Assembly: GCA_964373795.1 (NCBI GenBank)
Contig: CAYJVY010000009.1
Coordinates: 1 to 32,000, forward strand
Reading direction: 5' to 3'
Length of the DNA stretch: 32,000 nt
DNA from: an uncultured archaeon
Lineage (GTDB): Archaea > Iainarchaeota > Iainarchaeia > Iainarchaeales > DATDZZ01
Shown here: piece after piece, positions 4,685 through 30,928 of the stretch
Layout: each line of letters starts with the position of its first letter
Numbering within the stretch: the first letter of the stretch is position 1
The notes under the pieces: generated by a model
What the model saw: only the letters and a program-made list of their open reading frames with translations
Told to the model about the DNA's origin: nothing
The model's database searches: none
Made by a program: the position numbers and the translations under genes

Positions 4685-4760
4685 GGGCCGGTAGCTCAGC
4701 TTGGATAGAGCAGCACTCTCCTAAGGTGAAGGTTCGTGGGTTCAAATCCCACCCGGCTCG
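4685..4760 (+). tRNA. tRNA-Arg (anticodon CCU), no encoded CCA
   Basis: Hand-folded cloverleaf. Acceptor stem is GGGCCGG/CCGGCUC. D arm is GCUC-AGCUUGGAUA-GAGC. The anticodon loop is CUCCUAA, with U33 and A37. T arm is GUGGG-UUCAAAU-CCCAC. The discriminator G is followed by TTT. The region stands out as GC-rich. Confidence 0.9.
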
Positions 4761-4807
4761 TTTCAGCAAACTTTTTTATTCTAGTTAAACTTATTACTAT
4801 TGATTTT

Positions 4808-5428
4808 ATGCCTTTGCTTGATGTAAAAGATTCTCAGAAACTAGTTGAAAAATATGGAATTCAATTTGTGAAAAGCGTTTCAGTTTCAACTGAAAAAGAA
4901 TTAATTGAAAAACTTTCGAGCTTTCAAGGAAGAATTGCAATGAAAATTTTGTCTGATGAAATTGTTCACAAAACAGAAGTGGGGGGAGTAAAGTTAAATA
5001 TTTCTTCAAAAGAAGAAGCGGTTAAAGCTTTTCATGACTTGCAAAAATTGGTTGGATTTAATGGAGTGCTTGTACAGGAAATGATTAAAGGAACTGAATT
5101 AATTATTGGAGGAAAACAAGATCCTCAATTTGGACCAATAGTATTATTTGGTTTGGGAGGAATTTTTGTTGAAGTATTAAAAGATGTTTCAATAAGGATT
5201 TGCCCAATTGAAAGAAAAGATGCAAGGGAAATGATTCAAGAAATAAAAGGGCAAGCAATATTAAAAGGAGTTAGAGGACAAAAACCCATTAATTTTCAAT
5301 TGCTTGAAGACTATTTATTGAGTGTTTCAAAGCTAATGTTGAATGAAAAAATTCAAGAACTGGACTTAAATCCTTTAATTGCAACTGAAAACTCAATTAA
5401 AGCAATTGATGCAAGAGTAATTAGATGA
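4808..5428 (+). CDS. ATP-grasp domain protein, ADP-forming acetyl-CoA synthetase beta-subunit-like
   Basis: LLDVKDSQKLVEKYGIQF...EIVHKTEVGGVKLNI...LVQEM...ELDLNPL resembles the ACD beta / ATP-grasp_5 domain. The start is trimmed to ATG 4808 because the track start at 4736 lies inside the tRNA. Confidence 0.7.
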   Translation: MPLLDVKDSQKLVEKYGIQFVKSVSVSTEKELIEKLSSFQGRIAMKILSDEIVHKTEVGGVKLNISSKEEAVKAFHDLQKLVGFNGVLVQEMIKGTELIIGGKQDPQFGPIVLFGLGGIFVEVLKDVSIRICPIERKDAREMIQEIKGQAILKGVRGQKPINFQLLEDYLLSVSKLMLNEKIQELDLNPLIATENSIKAIDARVIR

Positions 5429-7998: not shown

Positions 7999-8646
7999 TT
8001 GTATTACATGGTTAGGGATTTAGATCTTCTTTTATTTTTTGCTGATTTTGGATTGTATCAAAAATGCAGGGTTTCAACAATTGAAATTGCTTTAAGGCTT
8101 GGAGTGTCTCAGCAAACCGTTTCAAGGAAGTTAATGGAGTTAGAGAAAGAAAAACTTATTTCAAGAACTCATAAACATAGAGGGATTGAAATTTCTTTAA
8201 CTGAAAAAGCAATAACTCAATTAAAAGAACATTTCTTGAATTTGAAAAACGTTTTTGAAAAACAACCTAAAAGAGTTGAAGGATTTGTTAGTAATGGAGT
8301 TGGAGAGGGCGCTTATTATATTCAGAAATATAATTCTTTTTTGAAAAAAAAACTTGGATTCAAAGCATTTCCTGGAACATTGAACTTGAAAGTGGATGAA
8401 ATTAAGGTAAAAAATTTTCTTAATCAATTAAACCCTGTTTACATTAAAGAATTTAAAGCAACGAATAGAACCTTTGGGGGAATTACTTGTTATAAGGTTA
8501 AAATTAATTCAGTTAAAGGAGCAATAGTTGTTCCGGATAGAACTCGTTACAGTGCAAATGTATTGGAATTAATTGCTCCACTTTCTTTGAGAAAAAAATT
8601 CGACTTAAATGAAGGATCAAAAATAAATGTTAGCACAATTAAATGA
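7999..8646 (+). CDS. ribK: RbkR-type bifunctional regulator / CTP-dependent archaeal riboflavin kinase
   Basis: N-terminal winged HTH (IEIALRLGVSQQTVSRKLMELEKEKLISR) joined to an MJ0056-type kinase domain (FPGTLNLKVDE, GITCYKVKI, PDRTRY). The track start is TTG 7999; ATG 8008 is an alternative. Confidence 0.85.
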   Translation: MYYMVRDLDLLLFFADFGLYQKCRVSTIEIALRLGVSQQTVSRKLMELEKEKLISRTHKHRGIEISLTEKAITQLKEHFLNLKNVFEKQPKRVEGFVSNGVGEGAYYIQKYNSFLKKKLGFKAFPGTLNLKVDEIKVKNFLNQLNPVYIKEFKATNRTFGGITCYKVKINSVKGAIVVPDRTRYSANVLELIAPLSLRKKFDLNEGSKINVSTIK

Positions 8647-8655
8647 GGAAGAAAA

Positions 8656-9555
8656 ATGAAAATCGGAATAGCTGACACAATGTTCAGCAGAATTGACTTA
8701 ACGGAATTTGCTTTGCAGGCATTGAAAGGAAAATTCAAAGGCAGAATAGAAAGATATACTGTTCCTGGAATAAAGGATTTGCCTGTTGCATGTAAAAAAC
8801 TTTTCGAAGAACTGAGCTGTGACATTGTTCTTGCGCTTGGCTTTGTAGGCAAAGCTTCAATTGACAAGCAATGCGCACACGAAGCAACACAAGGAGTCCA
8901 ACAACTAATGTTGCAAACAGGAAAACACATTTTGGAAGTATTCATTCATTCAAACGAAACCTATACTGAAAAAAAATTATTAAAAATAGCCGAAAACAGA
9001 GTGAAAAAACATGCATTGAATGCAGTTGAATTGCTGAAAGGCGGAAAAGCTTTGCAGAAAAAAGCTGGAACAGGAGAAAGACAAGGCTTTCAAAATGAAG
9101 GAAGAATTTCTTTTCAAAACGCGGACAACCGCAAGCCGAGAATTGGAATTGTTGTTTCAAAAGTTTACCCAGAAATAACTGAAGAAATGCTGAAAATTTC
9201 TCAAATGCGAGCAAAAGAAAGAAAGGCTGAAGTGAAATTCGTTTTACGTGTAGGGGGAAGCTTTGACACTCCTTTAGCAGTAAAACGTTTAATTGAGCGC
9301 ACAGACATTGACGGAGTAATTGTTTTAGGAGCAGTAATTAAAGGCGAAACAAGCCATGATGAAATAGTGGCAGGAAATGCTGCAAGAAAAATTGCAGATT
9401 TGAGTGTAGAATATTCTAAACCAATTGGTTTAGGAATTTCTGGGCCTGGAATGACTAGAAAGCAAGCAATTCAAAGAATTGAAAAATTTGCATCAGATTC
9501 AGTTGACGCTGTTTTAAATTCCTTAGAAGAATTGAAAAAATTGGAGGCAGAATAA
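8656..9555 (+). CDS. ribC/ribH: Fusion of archaeal-type riboflavin synthase (N) and 6,7-dimethyl-8-ribityllumazine synthase (C)
   Basis: Residues 1-150 match the MJ1184 type (MKIGIADTMFSR, TVPGIKDLPVACKKL, CAHEA, GERQGFQNEG). Residues about 160-299 match the MJ0303 RibH type (GSFDTPLAVKRL, VLGAVIKGETSHDEIVAGNAARKIADLSVEYSKPIGLGISGPGMTRKQA). It is one uninterrupted 299-codon frame. Confidence 0.85.
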   Translation: MKIGIADTMFSRIDLTEFALQALKGKFKGRIERYTVPGIKDLPVACKKLFEELSCDIVLALGFVGKASIDKQCAHEATQGVQQLMLQTGKHILEVFIHSNETYTEKKLLKIAENRVKKHALNAVELLKGGKALQKKAGTGERQGFQNEGRISFQNADNRKPRIGIVVSKVYPEITEEMLKISQMRAKERKAEVKFVLRVGGSFDTPLAVKRLIERTDIDGVIVLGAVIKGETSHDEIVAGNAARKIADLSVEYSKPIGLGISGPGMTRKQAIQRIEKFASDSVDAVLNSLEELKKLEAE

Positions 9556-9959
9556 TGAAGAAAACTCTCCTTAATCCAAAAAATTTTACTAAAGCTTTGG
9601 GAAGTTATTCTCATGGATTAAAAATTGAGTTAACTGATTCAAGTTTTATTTTTGTTACAGGACAAATAGCAATGAATGCTGAAGGAAAACTTGTTTCAGA
9701 AAACGTTGAAGATCAAACAGAATTTGTTTTCCAGAACTTGCAAAAAATCTTGCAAGAAGGGGGAGCAAGCCTGGATGACGTTGTAAAAGCAACAATTTTT
9801 GTAACAGATTTAAAAGATTTTCCAAAAATTTCTGCAATAAGAAATAGATATTTTGCAAAAGCAAAACCTGTTTCAACTTTAGTTGAAATAAGTAATACTG
9901 TAAAAAAGGGTTGCAAGGTTGAAATTGAAGTAATTGCAGTATGCAAGAAAGGGATTTAA
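9555..9959 (+). CDS. ridA: RidA/YjgF/TdcF family enamine/imine deaminase
   Basis: Typical RidA layout (YSHG..., FVTGQIAMN, ATIFVTDLKDF, VEIEVIA). SD site GGAGG. Its ATG overlaps the previous stop by 1 nt. Confidence 0.85.
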   Translation: MKKTLLNPKNFTKALGSYSHGLKIELTDSSFIFVTGQIAMNAEGKLVSENVEDQTEFVFQNLQKILQEGGASLDDVVKATIFVTDLKDFPKISAIRNRYFAKAKPVSTLVEISNTVKKGCKVEIEVIAVCKKGI

Positions 9960-11165
9960 ATGACTGAAGGATTTGATTCAATTGAAACTGCTTTAAAAGA
10001 TTTTTTGAAAGGCAAGCCATTAATTGTAGTGGACGATGAAAACAGGGAAAACGAGGGAGACTTAATTGTTGCAGGAGAAAAGTGTTCGCCTGAAGTAATT
10101 AATTTCATGATAAAAGAAGGAAAAGGGTTGGTGTGCGTGCCTTTAACTGAAGAAAAAGCAAGGCAATTGAATTTAAATTTAATGATTTCAGGGAATAAAG
10201 AGTTACATAAATGTAATTTTACTGTTTCAATTGATGCATTAAAAGATTCTTCTACTGGGATTTCGGCTTTTGATCGCGCTAAAACAGTTCAAGAAATTGT
10301 TCGCGATAATTCAACTGAAAAAGATTTCACTAAACCTGGACATATTTTTCCTTTAATTGCAAGAAAAGGAGGATTGTTTGAAAGACAAGGGCATACAGAA
10401 GCTTCAATAGAGTTATGCAAGTTAACTGGCTTGAAAGAAGTTGCAGTAATTTGTGAAATAATTAAAGAAAATGGGGAAATGGCTAGAGTTTCTGATTTAA
10501 TTAAATTCAAGGAAAAACATGGATTGAAATTGATTTCAATAGTTGACTTAATTAGGTATTTAATTGAAAAAACAAAAATAATTAAGAAAGAAGTTGAAAC
10601 AAAGCTTCCAACCAAATTTGGGGAATTTAAATTAATTGCTTTCCAGTCTTTGATTAATGATTTTGAGCATTTGGTTTTAGTGAAAGGAGAAATTACTGGA
10701 AAAGAAAATGTTTTGATTAGAATTCATTCAGAGTGCTTAACCGGAGACTTATTTTCTTCAATGAGGTGTGATTGTCAAAACCAATTGCATTACTCAATGC
10801 AAAAAATTCAAGAAAAAGGAGAAGGATTAATTCTTTATTTAAGGCAAGAGGGAAGAGGCATTGGTTTGTTAAACAAGTTAAAGGCTTATGCATTGCAAGA
10901 TCAAGGCTTGGATACAGTTGAAGCAAACTTGCAGTTAGGGTTTAGAGCAGATGAAAGAAATTATTTAATTGCCGCAAAAATGTTGAAGGAATTGCAAGTT
11001 AAATCAATTGAGTTAATGACTAATAATCCTTCAAAGATATTTGAATTAGAAAAATTCGGAATAAAAGTTGTTCAAAGACATTCAATTCATTCAGAGAAAA
11101 ACAAATTCAATGAACCTTATTTGAAAACAAAAAAAGACAAGTTAGGGCATTTAATTGAAAAATAA
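9960..11165 (+). CDS. ribBA: Bifunctional 3,4-dihydroxy-2-butanone-4-phosphate synthase / GTP cyclohydrolase II
   Basis: RibB motifs (VVDDENRENEGDLI, GHTEAS) and the RibA zinc motif (IHSECLTGDLFSSMRCDCQNQL, YLRQEGRGIGL). Confidence 0.9.
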   Translation: MTEGFDSIETALKDFLKGKPLIVVDDENRENEGDLIVAGEKCSPEVINFMIKEGKGLVCVPLTEEKARQLNLNLMISGNKELHKCNFTVSIDALKDSSTGISAFDRAKTVQEIVRDNSTEKDFTKPGHIFPLIARKGGLFERQGHTEASIELCKLTGLKEVAVICEIIKENGEMARVSDLIKFKEKHGLKLISIVDLIRYLIEKTKIIKKEVETKLPTKFGEFKLIAFQSLINDFEHLVLVKGEITGKENVLIRIHSECLTGDLFSSMRCDCQNQLHYSMQKIQEKGEGLILYLRQEGRGIGLLNKLKAYALQDQGLDTVEANLQLGFRADERNYLIAAKMLKELQVKSIELMTNNPSKIFELEKFGIKVVQRHSIHSEKNKFNEPYLKTKKDKLGHLIEK

Positions 11166-11181
11166 TTTTTGAGGCGCTTGC

Positions 11182-12252
11182 TTGAATTCCTTCATGAAAA
11201 AAGCATTTGAATTGGCTAAAAAAGGGAAAGGAAAAACTTATCCAAATCCAACAGTTGGATGTGTTATTGTTAGAAAAGGAAAAATTGTTGGACAAGGATT
11301 TACTCAACCTGCAGGACAAAATCATGCAGAAATTGAAGCATTGAATTCATGCAAGCAAAGCCTTGAAAAAGCGGAAATGTATTCAACTTTAGAGCCTTGC
11401 AGTCATTTTGGGAAAACCCCTCCATGCACTAAAGCAATAATTAAATCAGGAATTTCAAGGGTTGTAATTGGTTCAATTGACTCAAATCCATTAGTTAATG
11501 GAAAAGGAGTTCAAGAATTACTTGAAGCAGGAATTAAAGTTGAAATCCAAGAAAATGAAGAAATTAAAAAATTAAATGAAGATTTTTTTAAATTCATTTT
11601 AACTAAAAAGCCTTTCATAATTTTAAAGGCTGCAATCTCCTTGGATGGAAAAATTTGCTCTGAAACAGGAGACAGTAAATGGATTTCAGGCGAGGATTCA
11701 AGGAAAAAAGTTCATAAAATGAGAAGCGAATGCAATGCAATTCTTGTAGGCATTAAAACAGTTTTAAAAGACAATCCGCAATTGACTGCAAGAATTCCTG
11801 AAGGCAGAAACCCTTTAAGAATAATTCTTGATTCAAGTTTAAAAATTCCTTTGCAGGCAAATGTTTTAAGCGATTCAAATGTTTTAATTATTTGCAGTAA
11901 AAAAGTTCAAGAAAAAAAATTAAAAAAATTAAAAAGAAAAGAGATTCAAGTAATGCAAGTAAATGAATTGAATGGAAAACTTGATTTAAATGAATTATTA
12001 AAAGTTTTAGGCGAAAAGGGGATAGTGAGTTTACTAGTTGAAGGAGGTTCAGAGGTTTTCAGTTCATTCATTGCGGAAAAATTAGTGGATAAAATAGTGT
12101 TATTCGTTGCTCCAAAAATTATTGGAGGAAAAAATTCGAAAAGCTTTGTAGAAGGAAAAGGAATTCAAAAAATTTCTGAAGCATTAACTGTTCAGGAAAT
12201 GAGTGTTGAAAAAAGTGGAGAAGATTTATTAATTCAAGGATATTTAAAATGA
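11182..12252 (+). CDS. ribD: Bifunctional diaminohydroxyphosphoribosylaminopyrimidine deaminase / 5-amino-6-(5-phosphoribosylamino)uracil reductase
   Basis: CMP/dCMP deaminase zinc motifs (HAEIEAL, EPCSHFGKTPPC) plus a C-terminal RibD reductase domain (KAAISLDGKI, LLVEGG). TTG 11182 lies 8 nt after GAGG; ATG 11194 is an alternative. Confidence 0.9.
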   Translation: MNSFMKKAFELAKKGKGKTYPNPTVGCVIVRKGKIVGQGFTQPAGQNHAEIEALNSCKQSLEKAEMYSTLEPCSHFGKTPPCTKAIIKSGISRVVIGSIDSNPLVNGKGVQELLEAGIKVEIQENEEIKKLNEDFFKFILTKKPFIILKAAISLDGKICSETGDSKWISGEDSRKKVHKMRSECNAILVGIKTVLKDNPQLTARIPEGRNPLRIILDSSLKIPLQANVLSDSNVLIICSKKVQEKKLKKLKRKEIQVMQVNELNGKLDLNELLKVLGEKGIVSLLVEGGSEVFSSFIAEKLVDKIVLFVAPKIIGGKNSKSFVEGKGIQKISEALTVQEMSVEKSGEDLLIQGYLK

Positions 12253-25713: not shown

Positions 25714-26442
25714 TCATTTTTTGCTTAAATAAGATTTAAGTTTTTCAGGTTGAATCCAGTTAAACATTGTTTCTCTATCAATATAAGCAAAATCTAATCT
25801 ATTTAAGTCAAGTTTTTCTTTTTCCTCTAATCCTTGCTCTAATGCTTCAAGCATTAAAGCAATTCCTTCCTCTAAAGTTAATCCTTCCTTGAATTTTGTT
25901 TCAAAGACTTTCATTGCTTCTTTTTTCTTTTGACCAATTGCTATTGCCTTGTATTCAGCTAATGCTCCTGAAGGCTCTGTTTCAAACAATCTAAACCCAG
26001 TATCATCTACTCCTCCAATAATTAATGACACTCCAAAAGGTCTAGTTCCTCCGTATTGAGTATGAGCTTGCTTTATTGAAGAAACCTCTTTTACAAGTGT
26101 TTCAACATGAATTGATTGATCGTAATACATTTCATTTTGCTGAGCTTCTTGCCTTGCTAGTTGAACTAATCTTCTTGCATCTCCAACTAATCCGCTTGAA
26201 ACAGCTGCTACATGGTCAGAGATTTTAAACAATTTTTCAATTGACTTTGGAATTAATAAATTTGATAAAACCTTTTTATCAGTTCCAAACAAAACTCCTT
26301 TATTGTAAACCAATCCACACCCCAAAGTTCCTTGTGCAACAATCTTTGAAGCATATTCTACTTGATAAAGTCTTCCATCAGGGGAAAACATTGTTGCAAC
26401 CTTATCATATGCAACTGCTTTTCCGCCACCCATTGGATACAA
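25714..26442 (-). CDS. psmA: Proteasome alpha subunit
   Basis: AYDKVATMFSPDGRLYQVEYA, GLVGDARRLV, and YGGTRPFGVSLIIGG. The track start is TTG 26442; ATG 26433 (MGGGKAVAYD) is an alternative. Confidence 0.92.
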   Translation of the reverse strand: MYPMGGGKAVAYDKVATMFSPDGRLYQVEYASKIVAQGTLGCGLVYNKGVLFGTDKKVLSNLLIPKSIEKLFKISDHVAAVSSGLVGDARRLVQLARQEAQQNEMYYDQSIHVETLVKEVSSIKQAHTQYGGTRPFGVSLIIGGVDDTGFRLFETEPSGALAEYKAIAIGQKKKEAMKVFETKFKEGLTLEEGIALMLEALEQGLEEKEKLDLNRLDFAYIDRETMFNWIQPEKLKSYLSKK

Positions 26443-26533
26443 TTAGCACCACTCCATTAAACTCTCTTTAAACATTTTATTTTCTCTCTCAAAACTATTG
26501 AATATAATAAGATAAAATATATAAACTCTTCTC

Positions 26534-26662
26534 TCAAGGTTCAGTCCTTGAAGCGCCGAGCAGCCGGCGAGGCTGAGTGTTCGTATGGGCATTGCGCTTG
26601 CCGCGCGAGACGGCAACTAAAGGCCAGTGTCAGCCTTGCATCCACCTGGTGTGATGGCGCTT
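26534..26662 (-). ncRNA. Unassigned GC-rich structured RNA candidate (112-nt multi-hairpin core plus flanking hairpin)
   Basis: The core 26551-26662 has 70/112 G+C. The closing helix is AAGCGCC/GGCGCTT. The internal hairpins lie at 26561-26575, 26598-26616 and 26620-26637, and a flanking hairpin lies at 26534-26551. The strand call is tentative: on the minus strand the flanking hairpin is followed by a T-rich run. No known family was recognised by eye. Confidence 0.5.
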
Positions 26663-27003
26663 TACTCAGTTCCTTTAATTGTTCCGCTTACAGTTAAAAT
26701 GAATGGAATTACTGTTATTCCTTTAACTTCTTTCAAGAAAAGCAAGCCTGCTTTTACTTGTTCCACTTCTTCTAATGCACAGCGTAAAACGCCTTGGTTT
26801 TTCTCTGAATCAAATTTCACTAACCAAATTTTTTGTTTTGCAGTTCCAAGTTCTCCAAATAATTGTAGAAACTGTTTCCATAAAGCAATTGAAACATCTC
26901 TTTCGATTAATTTTTCTTTGCAAATTAATTCAAATTTAATGTAACGCTTTTTTCCTCTCAAGGAAAGCGGAATCGGATTTAATGAAATTTTTTCATTAGC
27001 CAT
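26662..27003 (-). CDS. rnp2: RNase P protein component 2 (Pop5 homologue)
   Basis: At 113 aa, with KKRYIKFELI...ALWKQFLQLFGELG typical of archaeal Pop5. Its position is directly upstream of psmA. Confidence 0.75.
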   Translation of the reverse strand: MANEKISLNPIPLSLRGKKRYIKFELICKEKLIERDVSIALWKQFLQLFGELGTAKQKIWLVKFDSEKNQGVLRCALEEVEQVKAGLLFLKEVKGITVIPFILTVSGTIKGTE

Positions 27004-27015
27004 AAAATCATTTCA

Positions 27016-27813
27016 CTACAAATTCTTTTTAATAAAATGTATTACTGAATCAATTAATTCTTTGAAGAAAGGTTGTTCGAAAAACAAGTGATCTCCGCCT
27101 TCAATTAACTTTAACTCTTTATTGCATTCAAGTAATTCAAACAATTTCTTTGAATGATTTACTGAAACTATTTCATCCTTTGTTCCATGAATAATTAATG
27201 TATTTGCTTTAATTTTTTTCGCGTTTCCGTAAACAAGGTCATTCTTTACTCCATCTTCCAGAAAAGAGTAATTAATTTTGAATTTATTTCCTTTCTTGTC
27301 CTCAACAAATGCATATCCTGTTTTCTTCCACTCTTCAATTGATCTGTCCAAAATTTTTCTAATAACGTATTCCTTGAAATTGCTTAAAGCAGCTACAAGA
27401 ATTAATACTTTCACTTTTTTAGGGTTTTGAATGCAGTAAAGCAGTGAATCAAATCCTCCTAAACTTGATCCAATTAATGCAATTCTTTTTGCATTCAATC
27501 TTGGATGGCTTTTAACAAACTCAATTAATGCTTGTAATTCTTTTACTTGCTGTGAAGCAATTGTTTCCTCAAACCTTCCATTGGATTCTCCGTGCCCTGA
27601 AAAATCAAACCTTAAACAAGCAATTCCTTGCTTTGGAAGTTTTGAACTTAATTCTACTGCTTTTTTAGAGTTTTTCCCGCTCACAAATCCATGAACAAAT
27701 AACACTACTGGAAATTTTTCCTTGCTTTTCATTTCAGGCAAATGCAAAACACAAGAGAGTTTTTCATTTTTGTTATTCAAAATAGTTAGCTTTTCTTGCA
27801 ATTTACTCGCCAA
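27016..27813 (-). CDS. Alpha/beta-fold hydrolase
   Basis: HGFVSGK oxyanion region, nucleophile elbow GSSLGG, and C-terminal GGDHLF (catalytic His). TTG start, 11-nt overlap with coaD. Confidence 0.8.
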   Translation of the reverse strand: MASKLQEKLTILNNKNEKLSCVLHLPEMKSKEKFPVVLFVHGFVSGKNSKKAVELSSKLPKQGIACLRFDFSGHGESNGRFEETIASQQVKELQALIEFVKSHPRLNAKRIALIGSSLGGFDSLLYCIQNPKKVKVLILVAALSNFKEYVIRKILDRSIEEWKKTGYAFVEDKKGNKFKINYSFLEDGVKNDLVYGNAKKIKANTLIIHGTKDEIVSVNHSKKLFELLECNKELKLIEGGDHLFFEQPFFKELIDSVIHFIKKNL

Positions 27814-28294
27814 ATTTTTGTTTTAATTTTTTTTCCACGCATTCCGGAACAAATTCAGAAACACTTCCCTTCAAAGAAGCAATTTCTCTTACAATATTTG
27901 AACTTAAAAATAAGTATTTAGTTGAAGTCATAATAAAAATAGTGTCAACCTCTGGATTCAAGGTTCTATTAGTTAAATCATATTGTAATTCGTAATCAAA
28001 ATCTGATACTGCTCTTAAACCTCTAATAATTATTTTTGAATTATTTTCTTTAACAAATTCTACTAACAAGTTTGAAAAAGATTTTACTTCAACATTTTTT
28101 AATCCAATTTCTTTAATTGCTTCTTTAACTAACTGCATTCTTTCCTCTAACGAAAACAATGGTTTTTTGTTTCTATTATCTGATTTAGCTACTCCCACAA
28201 TTACTTTGTCAAATAAATTTAATGATCTTTGCAGTATATCTAAATGTCCATTAGTAATTGGATCAAATGTTCCAGGATAAACAGCTGTTTTCAT
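27803..28294 (-). CDS. coaD: Phosphopantetheine adenylyltransferase, bacterial type
   Basis: AVYPGTFDPITNGHLDI (T/HxGH) and RGLRAVSDFDYE closely match bacterial CoaD. ATGA overlap with coaE. Confidence 0.9.
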   Translation of the reverse strand: MKTAVYPGTFDPITNGHLDILQRSLNLFDKVIVGVAKSDNRNKKPLFSLEERMQLVKEAIKEIGLKNVEVKSFSNLLVEFVKENNSKIIIRGLRAVSDFDYELQYDLTNRTLNPEVDTIFIMTSTKYLFLSSNIVREIASLKGSVSEFVPECVEKKLKQKFGE

Positions 28295-28857
28295 TTATTT
28301 AACTCCTTTAAAAAATTATTAATTAAAATAACTTGTTTTGCAGTTGACTTAATTAATCCATCGTTATACACTATGATGTCTGCATTTTTTAGTTTTTTTT
28401 GTAAAGGAATTTGAGCCTTAATTCTTTTAAGCACTTCTTTTTTAGTCAAACCTTTTTTTAACAATCTTTTTAATTGATTTTTTTTACTGCATTTCACTAC
28501 AATTATTGAATCAAACAAATTCGCGCACTGAGTTTCAAACAATAAAGGAATATCTACAATCAATGTCTTGTTTTGCTTTCTGTGAATTGAAATAATTTTT
28601 TTTAACTTCATTAAAACAATTGGGTGAACAATTGCATTCAATTTTTTTAAAGCATTTTTTGATGAAAAAACTTTTTCGCTTAATTGTTTTGAATTCAGAG
28701 TTCCAAATTCTTTTAAAACCTGTTTTTTAATTTCTTTTTTTTTCATTACTTTTTTTGCAAGTTTATCGATGTCTAGTGTTTCGTTTTCAAGGTGTTTGAA
28801 TATATTTGTAACAGTTGTTTTTCCGCACCCAATTGAAGAAGTTATTGCAATAATCAT
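28291..28857 (-). CDS. coaE: Dephospho-CoA kinase, bacterial type
   Basis: P-loop ITSSIGCGKTTV and DIPLLFET. The size and layout are those of CoaE. Confidence 0.8.
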   Translation of the reverse strand: MIIAITSSIGCGKTTVTNIFKHLENETLDIDKLAKKVMKKKEIKKQVLKEFGTLNSKQLSEKVFSSKNALKKLNAIVHPIVLMKLKKIISIHRKQNKTLIVDIPLLFETQCANLFDSIIVVKCSKKNQLKRLLKKGLTKKEVLKRIKAQIPLQKKLKNADIIVYNDGLIKSTAKQVILINNFLKELNK

Positions 28858-28866
28858 TTTTTTTCC

Positions 28867-29592
28867 TCAAAAATTTTTGTCTTCTAATATGAAATAAATT
28901 CTTTTATTATTTGTTCCTTTGTTTTTTGTTTTAGTGATTTTTATTTTACCAATTTCTGAAGTGTTTTTTACATGTGTTCCTCCGTCTGCTTGAACATCAA
29001 AATCTCCTATTGAAACAATTCTAAAAACTTGAATATCTTTTGGCATGACATCTTTTAATTTGAATAAAGCGGGATTTTTTAGTGCTTCTGTTCTTGGCAA
29101 AAATTGAATTGATGAATCTAAGTTTCTGGAAATAACTTCATTAGTTTTTTCTTCAAACACTTTAACCATTTCAGGATTAAAGTTTTCAATATTGAAATCC
29201 ATTTTGGATTCATCTAAATCTATTTGGTTTCCAGTGGTTAAAGCACTTGTTTCTTTGAAAATAACTTCAGACAAAACATGCAAAGCAGTGTGCATTTTCA
29301 TCAATTGATATCTCCTTTCCCAGTCAATTATGCCTTTAACTTTTTCTCCTACTTTTAGTTCGGATGCGTTTTCAACTTCGTGTGAAACGGTTTCACCAAA
29401 TTGTTTTACGAAAACGACTTTGAATTCTTTTCCATTTACAAGAATTTTTCCTGTATCGTGTGGTTGTCCTCCGCTTACTGGATAAAAAGCAGTTTTATCT
29501 AATTCAACAAATTTTCCTTCCTTGATCTCCAAAACTTTTGCATTGAATTCTTTTAAATAAGAATCTTTTAAATACATTTTTTCGGTTTCCAT
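28867..29592 (-). CDS. alaX: Alanyl-tRNA editing protein AlaX-M
   Basis: FYPVSGGQPHDTG, zinc motif HTALHVL, and ADGGTHV. Confidence 0.85.
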   Translation of the reverse strand: METEKMYLKDSYLKEFNAKVLEIKEGKFVELDKTAFYPVSGGQPHDTGKILVNGKEFKVVFVKQFGETVSHEVENASELKVGEKVKGIIDWERRYQLMKMHTALHVLSEVIFKETSALTTGNQIDLDESKMDFNIENFNPEMVKVFEEKTNEVISRNLDSSIQFLPRTEALKNPALFKLKDVMPKDIQVFRIVSIGDFDVQADGGTHVKNTSEIGKIKITKTKNKGTNNKRIYFILEDKNF

Positions 29593-30334: not shown

Positions 30335-30928
30335 ATGCTCATGAAATTAAATTCAATTCAAGTTTTAGTTTTAATCTTAATAGTGTTTGTTTTAGCTAGT
30401 GGGTGTGTTTTAAATCAATCTGCCTCAAAATTAACTGATTCAACAGCTGGGCAACCAAAGCTTGGAACAAAAACAGAGCTTAAACTAACTAGCTCAGCAT
30501 TTAATGATGGCGAATTCATTCCATTCAAGTATAGTTGTGAAGGAGGAAACAATAGTCCTCCATTAGAAATTACTGGCTTGCCTCAAGAGACTAAGAGTTT
30601 GGTTTTAATAATGGACGATCCAGATGCAGTTGAAGTTGTTGGATTTATTTTTAATCATTGGACTGTATTTAACATTGATCCTTCTACTACTTCAATTAAA
30701 GAAAATCAAAAATTTGGAACTCTGGGAACTACTGGGGCGAACGAAAAAGCTTATTTAGGGCCTTGTCCTCCGCCTCCTAGAACTCATACTTATTCTTTTA
30801 AGTTGTATGCTCTTGGTTCAACTTTGAGTGTTTTTGAAGGCGTAACGAGAGATGAAGTTGTAAAAGCAATGCAGGGAAAAATTCTTGCACAAACAGAGTT
30901 AAAAGGTAAATATAAGAGTTCTGGGTAA
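30335..30928 (+). CDS. PEBP (YbhB/YbcL, Raf-kinase-inhibitor-like) family lipoprotein
   Basis: Signal peptide with lipobox VLASGC. PEBP motifs LIMDDPDA, HWTVFNI and GPCPPPPRTHTYSFKLYAL. Confidence 0.85.
   Translation: MLMKLNSIQVLVLILIVFVLASGCVLNQSASKLTDSTAGQPKLGTKTELKLTSSAFNDGEFIPFKYSCEGGNNSPPLEITGLPQETKSLVLIMDDPDAVEVVGFIFNHWTVFNIDPSTTSIKENQKFGTLGTTGANEKAYLGPCPPPPRTHTYSFKLYALGSTLSVFEGVTRDEVVKAMQGKILAQTELKGKYKSSG

Follow-up and report, generated by a model that had tools for sequence, protein, structure and literature searches.

In an uncultured archaeon of the Iainarchaeota, a GC-rich element dense in perfect hairpins lies between the gene for the RNase P subunit Pop5 (rnp2) and the gene for the proteasome alpha subunit (psmA). 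The locus belongs to a stretch of 32,000 nucleotides at the start of contig CAYJVY010000009.1 (GenBank assembly GCA_964373795.1), which we analyzed as a whole and refer to as the window. We tentatively interpret the element as a recent, lineage-specific, small, non-autonomous, non-coding GC-rich palindromic insertion, comparable to MITEs (miniature inverted-repeat transposable elements) or to Rickettsia palindromic elements (RPEs). We favor an insertion event because a direct repeat flanks the element, an inverted repeat marks its two ends, and the current stop codon of Pop5 appears to be supplied by the element itself. An earlier note on this DNA had considered a new stable small RNA, or a very divergent or reduced known RNA, plausible. 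Nothing in our results shows a functional or stable RNA: the predicted folding energy is no better than that of shuffled sequences, and the proposal, unsupported as it stands, is weakened by the absence of the element from relatives.

Location and composition of the element

The GC-rich core of the element occupies positions 26551 to 26662, and 70 of its 112 nt (62.5%) are G or C, against 30% across the window. When all 112-nt windows of the 32 kb were scanned, the peak value (0.634) was found at a start position of 26549, and no 112-nt stretch outside the element reached 55%. This comparison includes the sole tRNA of the window, a tRNA-Arg at 4685–4760, whose region has a G+C fraction of about 0.52–0.59. 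The core has no Rfam or tRNA match. Its last base, 26662, is also the last base of the TAA stop codon of Pop5, which is encoded on the minus strand at 26662–27003 (PF01900, E = 3.8e-17); psmA follows on the same strand at 25714–26442 (PF00227 and PF10584). The earlier note had described this compositional contrast, the start of the element on the stop codon, and a series of helices, and each of these is present in the sequence where the note had placed it.

The core is bounded by a terminal inverted repeat, with AAGCGCC (26551–26557) as the left arm and GGCGCTT (26656–26662) as the right arm. The two arms match perfectly over 7 bp, or over 8 bp when a 2-nt gap is allowed, the additional base giving G(TA)AAGCGCC ... 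GGCGCTTC. Within these ends lie three perfect hairpins: CAGCC-GGCGA-GGCTG at 26561–26575 (hairpin A), TTGCCG-CGCGAGA-CGGCAA at 26598–26616 (hairpin C), whose loop is able to close to a GCGA tetraloop on the plus strand, and AAGGC-CAGTGTCA-GCCTT at 26620–26637 (hairpin D). Together with the closing helix, these hairpins comprise 23 bp and not a single G-U pair.

Signature of a proposed insertion into the last codons of Pop5

A short direct repeat, TCAG(T)TCCTT, adjoins both ends of the element, with 9 of 10 bases matching and one gap. The psmA-side copy at 26541–26549 (TCAG-TCCTT on the plus strand, AAGGA-CTGA on the minus strand) lies just beyond the element, and the Pop5-side copy at 26666–26675 (TCAGTTCCTT on the plus strand, AAGGAACTGA on the minus strand) falls within the last Pop5 codons. 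Using 16-nt flanks in the same geometry, 3.6% of random window positions had a repeat as good (empirical P = 0.036). The repeat is a candidate target-site duplication, and the element may be, or may once have been, mobile. The repeat would set the limits of the inserted segment at 26550–26665 (116 nt), with an inverted repeat that reads GAAGCGCC ... GGCGCTT(TA)C; on the minus strand, this putative segment begins with GTAAAGCGCC and so would provide the current Pop5 TAA stop.

The state of the locus before such an insertion can be reconstructed in silico. On the minus strand, the present sequence reads ...ATT AAA GGA ACT GAG TAA AGCGCC ... GGCGCTT C AAGGACTGA ACC TTG AGAGAAGAG TTTATATA. Excising 26550–26665 together with one copy of the repeat yields ...ATT AAA GGA ACT GAA CCT TGA, and the predicted empty site joins ...AAAGGAACTGA directly to ACCTTGAGAG.... 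The restored in-frame TGA, the probable former Pop5 stop (26536–26534 on the minus strand), precedes the psmA TATA box by 8 nt, as in the related locus L010. The restored C-terminus, VSG-TIKGTEP, has the same length past VSG as those of the closest homologues (VSG-SVKGAKN, -SVKGAKK and -SVKGAKS in P0002, P0007 and P0008). The hairpin that flanks the element, TCAAGG-TTCAGT-CCTTGA at 26534–26551, would be a composite of the element end, one repeat copy and the old stop codon.

According to this reconstruction, a segment of about 116 bp with a 7–8-bp inverted repeat at its ends would have landed in the last codons of Pop5 and duplicated about 10 bp of the target (AAGGAACTGA). The insert would have carried its own TAA, so that Pop5 lost only its last residue (a C-terminal GTEP becoming GTE), and its former TGA stop, along with the promoter of psmA, would have been displaced by about 125 nt downstream. 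The element has several hallmarks of a MITE, namely a terminal inverted repeat (if a short one), a length of 112–116 nt with no meaningful coding capacity, and an empty site in relatives. The signs of insertion are individually not strong; taken with the empty sites, an insertion into the 3' end of Pop5 would be the most economical history.

Several observations weigh against a MITE-like insertion. The direct repeat is imperfect and of marginal significance, and the insertion model needs a later 1-nt deletion in the non-coding copy. The inverted repeat is short, at 7–8 bp. Among the open reading frames (ORFs) of at least 110 aa in the window, none has a transposase or integrase domain. MITE families consist of several dispersed copies, and no second copy of the element is present in the 32 kb. 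Searches of viral contigs, plasmids and phages yielded no homologue, nor did a search of metagenomes with one exact 20-mer as the query. A G+C content of 62% in a 30% genome is odd for a resident MITE and typical of structured RNA genes. Finally, the available relatives are distant (Pop5 identity of at most 61%), such that the empty site is not alignable base by base.

Absence from relatives and from sequence collections

In a psmA-based search of GTDB, the best matches were uncultured Nanoarchaeia/Woesearchaeota metagenome-assembled genomes and Methanobrevibacter, at 38–47% identity, none of them with the element; in the search for Pop5 homologues, the best non-self match was 61% identical. 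The host is therefore an AT-rich archaeon with no close relatives among sequenced genomes. Between Pop5 and psmA, loci L010, L011, L013, L039 and L040 have an AT-rich spacer without a GC island, and L012 and L034 have an extra ORF at the junction instead. The gap between the two genes is 65–150 nt in the relatives measured (L040 left out) versus 219 nt in the window. In the relatives, a TATA box is located 8–40 nt past the Pop5 stop (CTTTATATA or TTTATAAA in L010, L011, L012 and L039), and the TTTATATA of the window (26518–26525, minus strand) is the same psmA promoter. The earlier note had taken this T-rich run for the 3' end of a minus-strand transcript, an assignment that does not hold given that the corresponding box follows Pop5 in relatives without the element.

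Across about 118 kb of related loci, neither blastn nor nhmmer detected a counterpart of the element, and a single-sequence covariance model of the structure proposed in the earlier note matched only itself. GC islands did appear in three of the other loci; those in L004 and L005 proved to be Gly-rich coding sequence and the one in L008 to be Rrp41 coding sequence. The note had correctly remarked that the classical superoperon has no such element at this junction, and it had also counted absence from relatives as an argument against a functional RNA; the element is missing from the Pop5–psmA junction of every relative retrieved. Judging by these comparisons, it appears to be specific to this lineage at this site.

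Wider searches were likewise negative. Scanning JGI metagenomes for the exact 20-mer CGCGGCAAGCGCAATGCCCA returned 18 chance matches, on bacterial contigs of 54–68% G+C with unrelated flanks; four scans of viral contigs gave one chance match only, and blastn against plasmids and phages gave zero matches. At the protein level, the element has two stop-free frames. Querying 1.84 billion representatives by HMMER with the open +0 frame produced two marginal multi-stretch matches, which we provisionally judged to be composition-driven. A word-index protein search with the open minus-strand frame found nothing, a weak negative in that the index failed its positive control: the Pop5 protein P0011 (described below) was not retrieved from its own 54-residue insert peptide, and negatives for short low-complexity queries are correspondingly weak.

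These results also bear on the idea that the element is non-mobile filler, that is, a foreign or own GC-rich fragment (e.g., part of a structured RNA gene) that was captured once during repair at the 3' end of Pop5 and has no function. We regard this as unlikely. It would account for an apparently single-copy segment with no homologues, no transposase nearby and a composition foreign to the genome, and the short flanking homology would also suit a microhomology-mediated insertion. However, enriched perfect palindromes and a terminal inverted repeat are not expected of a random fragment, and the searches revealed no source: neither an rRNA nor a tRNA nor any other Rfam family matched at E ≤ 10, and the translations of the two open frames gave no meaningful protein.

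Behavior of the locus in short-read assemblies

The locus recurs, at 99.95–100% identity, in two independent Logan short-read assemblies of the same population, each from its own run, and both stop inside the element. One (L014, from ERR4904391) extends from the Pop5 side to 26586, and the other (L037, from ERR4904390) extends from the psmA side to 26564. Each junction between the element and its flank is independently confirmed, and the element is therefore not an assembly chimera. The stretch at 26565–26585 is spanned by neither assembly. The two breaks lie 22 nt apart in contigs of 2–3 kb, and a random origin of two breaks so close together is unlikely; such breaks would be predicted for a segment that is repeated or polymorphic, and a drop in coverage at this spot would also fit them.

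Pairing and folding statistics

The richness in perfect palindromes noticed by the earlier note exceeds chance expectation. A perfect terminal helix of at least 7 bp arose in 1.9% of dinucleotide shuffles of the island (P = 0.019), and at least four perfect hairpins (stem of at least 5 bp, loop of 3–8 nt) arose in 1.1% (P = 0.011), the observed number being 4 and the shuffle mean 0.85.

The folding energy tells a different story. The minimum free energy (MFE) of the 112-nt core has z-scores of -1.42 on the plus strand and -0.22 on the minus strand relative to shuffled sequences, or -1.65 and -0.61 when the flanks are included; the tRNA-Arg used as a control scores -2.31. The MFE of the element is unremarkable by this standard. 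Nor is the five-helix model of the earlier note the predicted fold on either strand: it has -32.9 kcal/mol versus an MFE of -49.0 on the plus strand (16 kcal/mol worse) and -30.8 versus -39.1 on the minus strand (8 kcal/mol worse). In the plus-strand ensemble, its hairpins have probabilities of 0.00–0.14 (hairpin A, 0.00; hairpin C, 0.14; hairpin D, 0.00), and on the minus strand the corresponding values are 0.20, 0.84 and 0.20. The unusual feature is a cluster of strictly Watson-Crick local palindromes with a terminal inverted repeat rather than a well-defined RNA fold. The palindrome pattern is equal on both strands and the fold is no better than that of shuffles; the pattern is a property of the DNA and not of a defined RNA fold.

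We also observed an internal direct repeat, ATTGCGCTT / ATGGCGCTT, at 26591–26599 and 26654–26662. Through this repeat, the 5' arm AAGCGC(C) has two alternative partners, the complementary GCGCTT at 26594–26599 or the right arm at 26656–26662. Two closing helices, of which only one can exist at a time, might be available to the element, or else the element might combine two sub-units, of 49 and 63 nt.

These statistics matter most for the possibility that the element is a novel lineage-specific gene for a small structured RNA, which we rank as the main rival and consider somewhat less likely than the insertion. Such a gene would more likely lie on the plus strand, antisense to the operon; the near-palindromic psmA TATA box, read in reverse, would drive its transcription, and an AAGCGCC/GGCGCUU helix would close its RNA. 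In GC contrast, the element matches or surpasses the sole tRNA of the window, and perfect hairpins are enriched. On the plus strand, TATATAAA (26518–26525) ends 25 nt before 26551, close to the 24-nt gap behind the TATA box of the tRNA-Arg; the plus-strand fold is 10 kcal/mol more stable than the minus-strand fold, with a closing-helix probability of 0.93; and GCGA, a loop of GNRA type, occurs in two plus-strand hairpin loops and in none on the minus strand. However, no homologue was found, all relatives examined are without the element, the plus-strand z-scores (-1.4 to -1.65) fall short of significance, and about half of the energy difference between the strands is compositional. The predicted plus-strand fold destroys the hairpins described in the earlier note, and no oligo-T terminator follows it on the plus strand. 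As for the promoter, the TATA box serves psmA anyway, and its spacing carries little weight when insertions would be tolerated only in a zone 10–30 nt from the box (about 20 nt wide).

A structure that acts in cis on the minus-strand Pop5 transcript is considerably less probable. It might be a stabilizer or terminator in the 3' untranslated region (UTR), or a tRNA-like RNase P substrate that sets the 3' end of the mRNA and feeds back on RNase P expression. The element begins exactly at the stop codon of an RNase P subunit gene, its 7-bp closing helix has the length of an acceptor stem, a hairpin and then a T-rich stretch come behind it, and a second, unrelated GC-rich hairpin cluster occurs inside the Pop5 gene of L034. 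Yet it has no T-loop and no tRNA-like score, its minus-strand fold has a z-score of -0.2, the terminator scan is empty, and the T-rich run is the psmA promoter. Relatives manage without the element, and the L034 insert is not significantly similar to it.

Known RNA classes

No known RNA was detected in the element. At the gathering threshold, Rfam 15 identified only the tRNA in the whole window, and at E ≤ 10 it gave zero matches on positions 26400–26800 alone (401 nt). ARAGORN in its default, intron, mitochondrial and transfer-messenger RNA modes called no tRNA at the element and, with thresholds lowered to 50–80%, made only incoherent low-score calls. A sigma-70 promoter and terminator scan of both strands of 26300–27100 was uninformative and found no intrinsic terminator.

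A tRNA, with or without an intron, was rejected for the lack of an ARAGORN call, of an Rfam match at E ≤ 10 and of a GTTCRA T-loop. RNase P RNA and signal recognition particle (SRP) RNA were rejected on similar grounds, with no covariance-model match, no CR-I, CR-V or SRP motif and an island far too short. For box C/D small RNAs, RUGAUGA is found on neither strand, and on the plus strand CUGA (26573) precedes UGAUG (26652), which is the wrong order. For box H/ACA RNAs, minus-strand ACA motifs are located at 26652–26650, 26630–26628 and 26580–26578, but by eye none follows an unbranched hairpin with a pocket, and the archaeal H/ACA families of Rfam gave no match at E ≤ 10 on 26400–26800. A scripted scan of both strands for archaeal bulge-helix-bulge introns returned no more than weak candidates, which had wobble pairs and flanking helices of 2 bp, none of them at the boundaries of the element.

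5S rRNA deserves a closer look. A motif check with regular expressions confirmed that CCCAUACGAAC on the minus strand resembles loop C of 5S rRNA, and the length of about 112–120 nt and the terminal helix are also reminiscent of that RNA. However, the string is near nt 74–84 instead of about 35–45, so the earlier note was right to call it misplaced; there is no RF00001 match at E ≤ 10 and no GAAGUUAAGC-type motif; one short arm and a two-hairpin domain do not make the three-way junction of 5S rRNA; and no rRNA genes are nearby. The Rfam 5S model finds 5S rRNA in 203 of 208 complete Nanobdellota genomes, normally beside the rRNA operon (bioRxiv 10.64898/2026.05.13.725050), which makes an undetectable 5S rRNA at this odd place unlikely.

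A highly divergent or rearranged known RNA, be it 5S rRNA, a tRNA that is permuted or contains an intron, or RNase P or SRP RNA in a reduced form, is thus largely refuted, and we give it very little credence. Beyond the loop-C-like string, a length near that of 5S rRNA and the 7-bp closing helix, nothing speaks for it, and the Rfam, ARAGORN and motif results (including the missing T-loop, CR-I and CR-V) all speak against it. As far as covariance models can tell, identity with a known RNA is excluded, and the element does not behave as a generic conserved structured non-coding RNA (ncRNA) either, with no homologue and z-scores of -0.2 to -1.65. The suggestion of a very divergent 5S rRNA, tRNA, RNase P RNA or SRP RNA can accordingly be set aside, and the statement in the earlier note that the element fits no known family, for which it had proposed Rfam as the arbiter, stands.

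Comparison with known elements

With MITEs, the element shares a length in the class of about 100–150 bp, non-coding and hairpin-forming sequence, a terminal inverted repeat with a candidate target-site duplication, a position at a gene end beside a promoter, and absence from orthologous sites in relatives. It differs in that it is known in one copy, has a very short inverted repeat (7–8 bp), is far richer in G+C than its host genome and has no cognate transposase identified.

RPEs and the GC clusters of yeast mitochondria are selfish palindromic elements of AT-rich genomes that also enter coding sequences, and both families are defined by many dispersed, recognizably similar copies. Like them, the element is a GC-rich palindromic island in an AT-rich genome, tolerated at the end of an ORF, to which it contributes codons, in this case apparently the stop codon. 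Unlike them, it is not accompanied by dispersed similar copies in the 32-kb window, and its host is an archaeon, probably a member of DPANN.

GC-content screens by Klein, Misulovin and Eddy in 2002 reportedly revealed ncRNA islands in AT-rich archaeal genomes. For bacteria, two articles (PMC6429828, PMC11109978) describe screens of GC-rich intergenic regions. The element resembles the RNAs from such screens in being a sharp intergenic GC island of small-RNA size with a TATA box at a plausible distance. Those RNAs, however, were validated by expression and/or conservation, whereas the element lacks homologues, covariation and a folding signal of any significance.

The insert in L034 itself is found in the Pop5 protein P0011 of another uncultured archaeon (L034–L036, GCA_964365115.1), at a locus with 49% G+C. 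It is an in-frame insert of about 129 nt, at about L034 4085–4213, with 65–75% G+C. Following 'LVC', it adds 42–44 low-complexity residues that are absent from nine other Pop5 sequences, and it contains four perfect or near-perfect 6-bp hairpins (CCCTGC/GCAGGG, CGCCGC/GCGGCG, GCGAAC/GTTCGC and CAGTGC/GCACTG). P0011 is the protein in 11 contigs read, with an identical insert in the three loci fetched. The insert has no Rfam match, no bulge-helix-bulge motif and no second copy in 8.5 kb. Being in frame, as RPEs are, it appears to resemble the RPE-like pattern of selfish DNA within a gene. Its alignment score with the window element is 35, and shuffled sequences averaged 26 ± 4.6 and reached up to 42, so that the similarity is not significant.

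The window is thus not alone in having a GC-rich insert with several hairpins in or at Pop5. It is conceivable, if rather improbable, that the element is a recently acquired or mobile new structured RNA restricted to its lineage, or that it belongs to an undescribed class of elements of DPANN-type archaea, rich in G+C and in hairpins, that have repeatedly inserted into Pop5 or next to it; the element would then be functionally tied to RNase P, for example as a substrate mimic or autoregulator. If it were such an RNA, it might be a small plus-strand RNA that uses the psmA TATA box in reverse as its promoter. Given that the two examples are dissimilar and that one is the ascertained case, a recurrent class tied to RNase P is speculative.

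A further candidate was dismissed. In P0012 (L033, a 599-nt scaffold from ENA), Pop5 is extended at its C-terminus by 60 residues that, by eye, look like the reverse strand of an unrelated methyltransferase-like gene on a contig with 56% G+C; L033 is probably a chimeric contig or an overlapping assembly rather than a carrier of an element.

Gene neighborhood

The genes around the element are nearly all on the minus strand (that of the PEBP-family protein is on the plus strand) and are ordered as in the archaeal RNase P/proteasome/exosome superoperon. On the Pop5 side, the order is L15e, Rpp30, AlaX-like protein, CoaE, cytidylyltransferase-like protein, alpha/beta hydrolase and Pop5; past the element, it is psmA, SBDS, Rrp4, Rrp41, Rrp42, L37ae and prefoldin beta.

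The alpha/beta-hydrolase gene (Hydrolase_4/Abhydrolase_1; 27016–27813, minus strand) overlaps the cytidylyltransferase-like gene by 11 nt. It is missing in L011 and L013, in which the cytidylyltransferase-like gene and Pop5 are directly adjacent. The hydrolase gene thus appears to be a further lineage-specific insertion in the same stretch, a locus that would have accepted other insertions as well. Between Pop5 and psmA, L012 (3348–3950) and L034 (4520–5011) each have an extra ORF (200 aa and 163 aa, respectively) without a Pfam match, which marks the junction as a place where genes have been gained repeatedly.

Other non-classical genes in the L15e–Rpp30–Pop5 part encode an AlaX-like editing domain protein (28867–29592), a bacterial-type CoaE (28291–28857), a CoaD-like cytidylyltransferase (27803–28294) and, on the opposite strand, a PEBP-family protein (30335–30928). 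The pair of CoaE and CoaD-like genes upstream of Pop5 is common to the window, L011, L013 and the P0009 contig. Elsewhere in the window, a riboflavin cluster on the plus strand (7999–12252) encodes a CTP-dependent riboflavin kinase fused to a helix-turn-helix domain, RidA (L-PSP), a fused RibBA, RibD and a 299-aa lumazine synthase with an N-terminal extension. The longest ORF of an ATP-grasp protein (4736–5428, plus strand) has a GTG start that falls inside the tRNA-Arg, and the true start is presumably further downstream.

Significance

As a single unconserved locus, the element has limited general significance until more copies, relatives or transcripts are available. Its effects may be incidental: Pop5 would have acquired a new stop codon, and stable hairpins would be clustered ahead of the psmA promoter; as the 3' UTR of Pop5, the hairpins could serve as a transcript-end barrier or an insulator. 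Should the element instead be expressed as RNA, it would constitute a small RNA specific to its lineage and without known relatives, beside the genes for RNase P and the exosome. If it represents a selfish palindromic insert, it would offer a small concrete example of how such elements reshape gene ends, replacing a stop codon and parting a gene from its neighbor's promoter inside one of the best-conserved archaeal gene clusters, in an archaeon with a reduced genome and presumably little mobile DNA.

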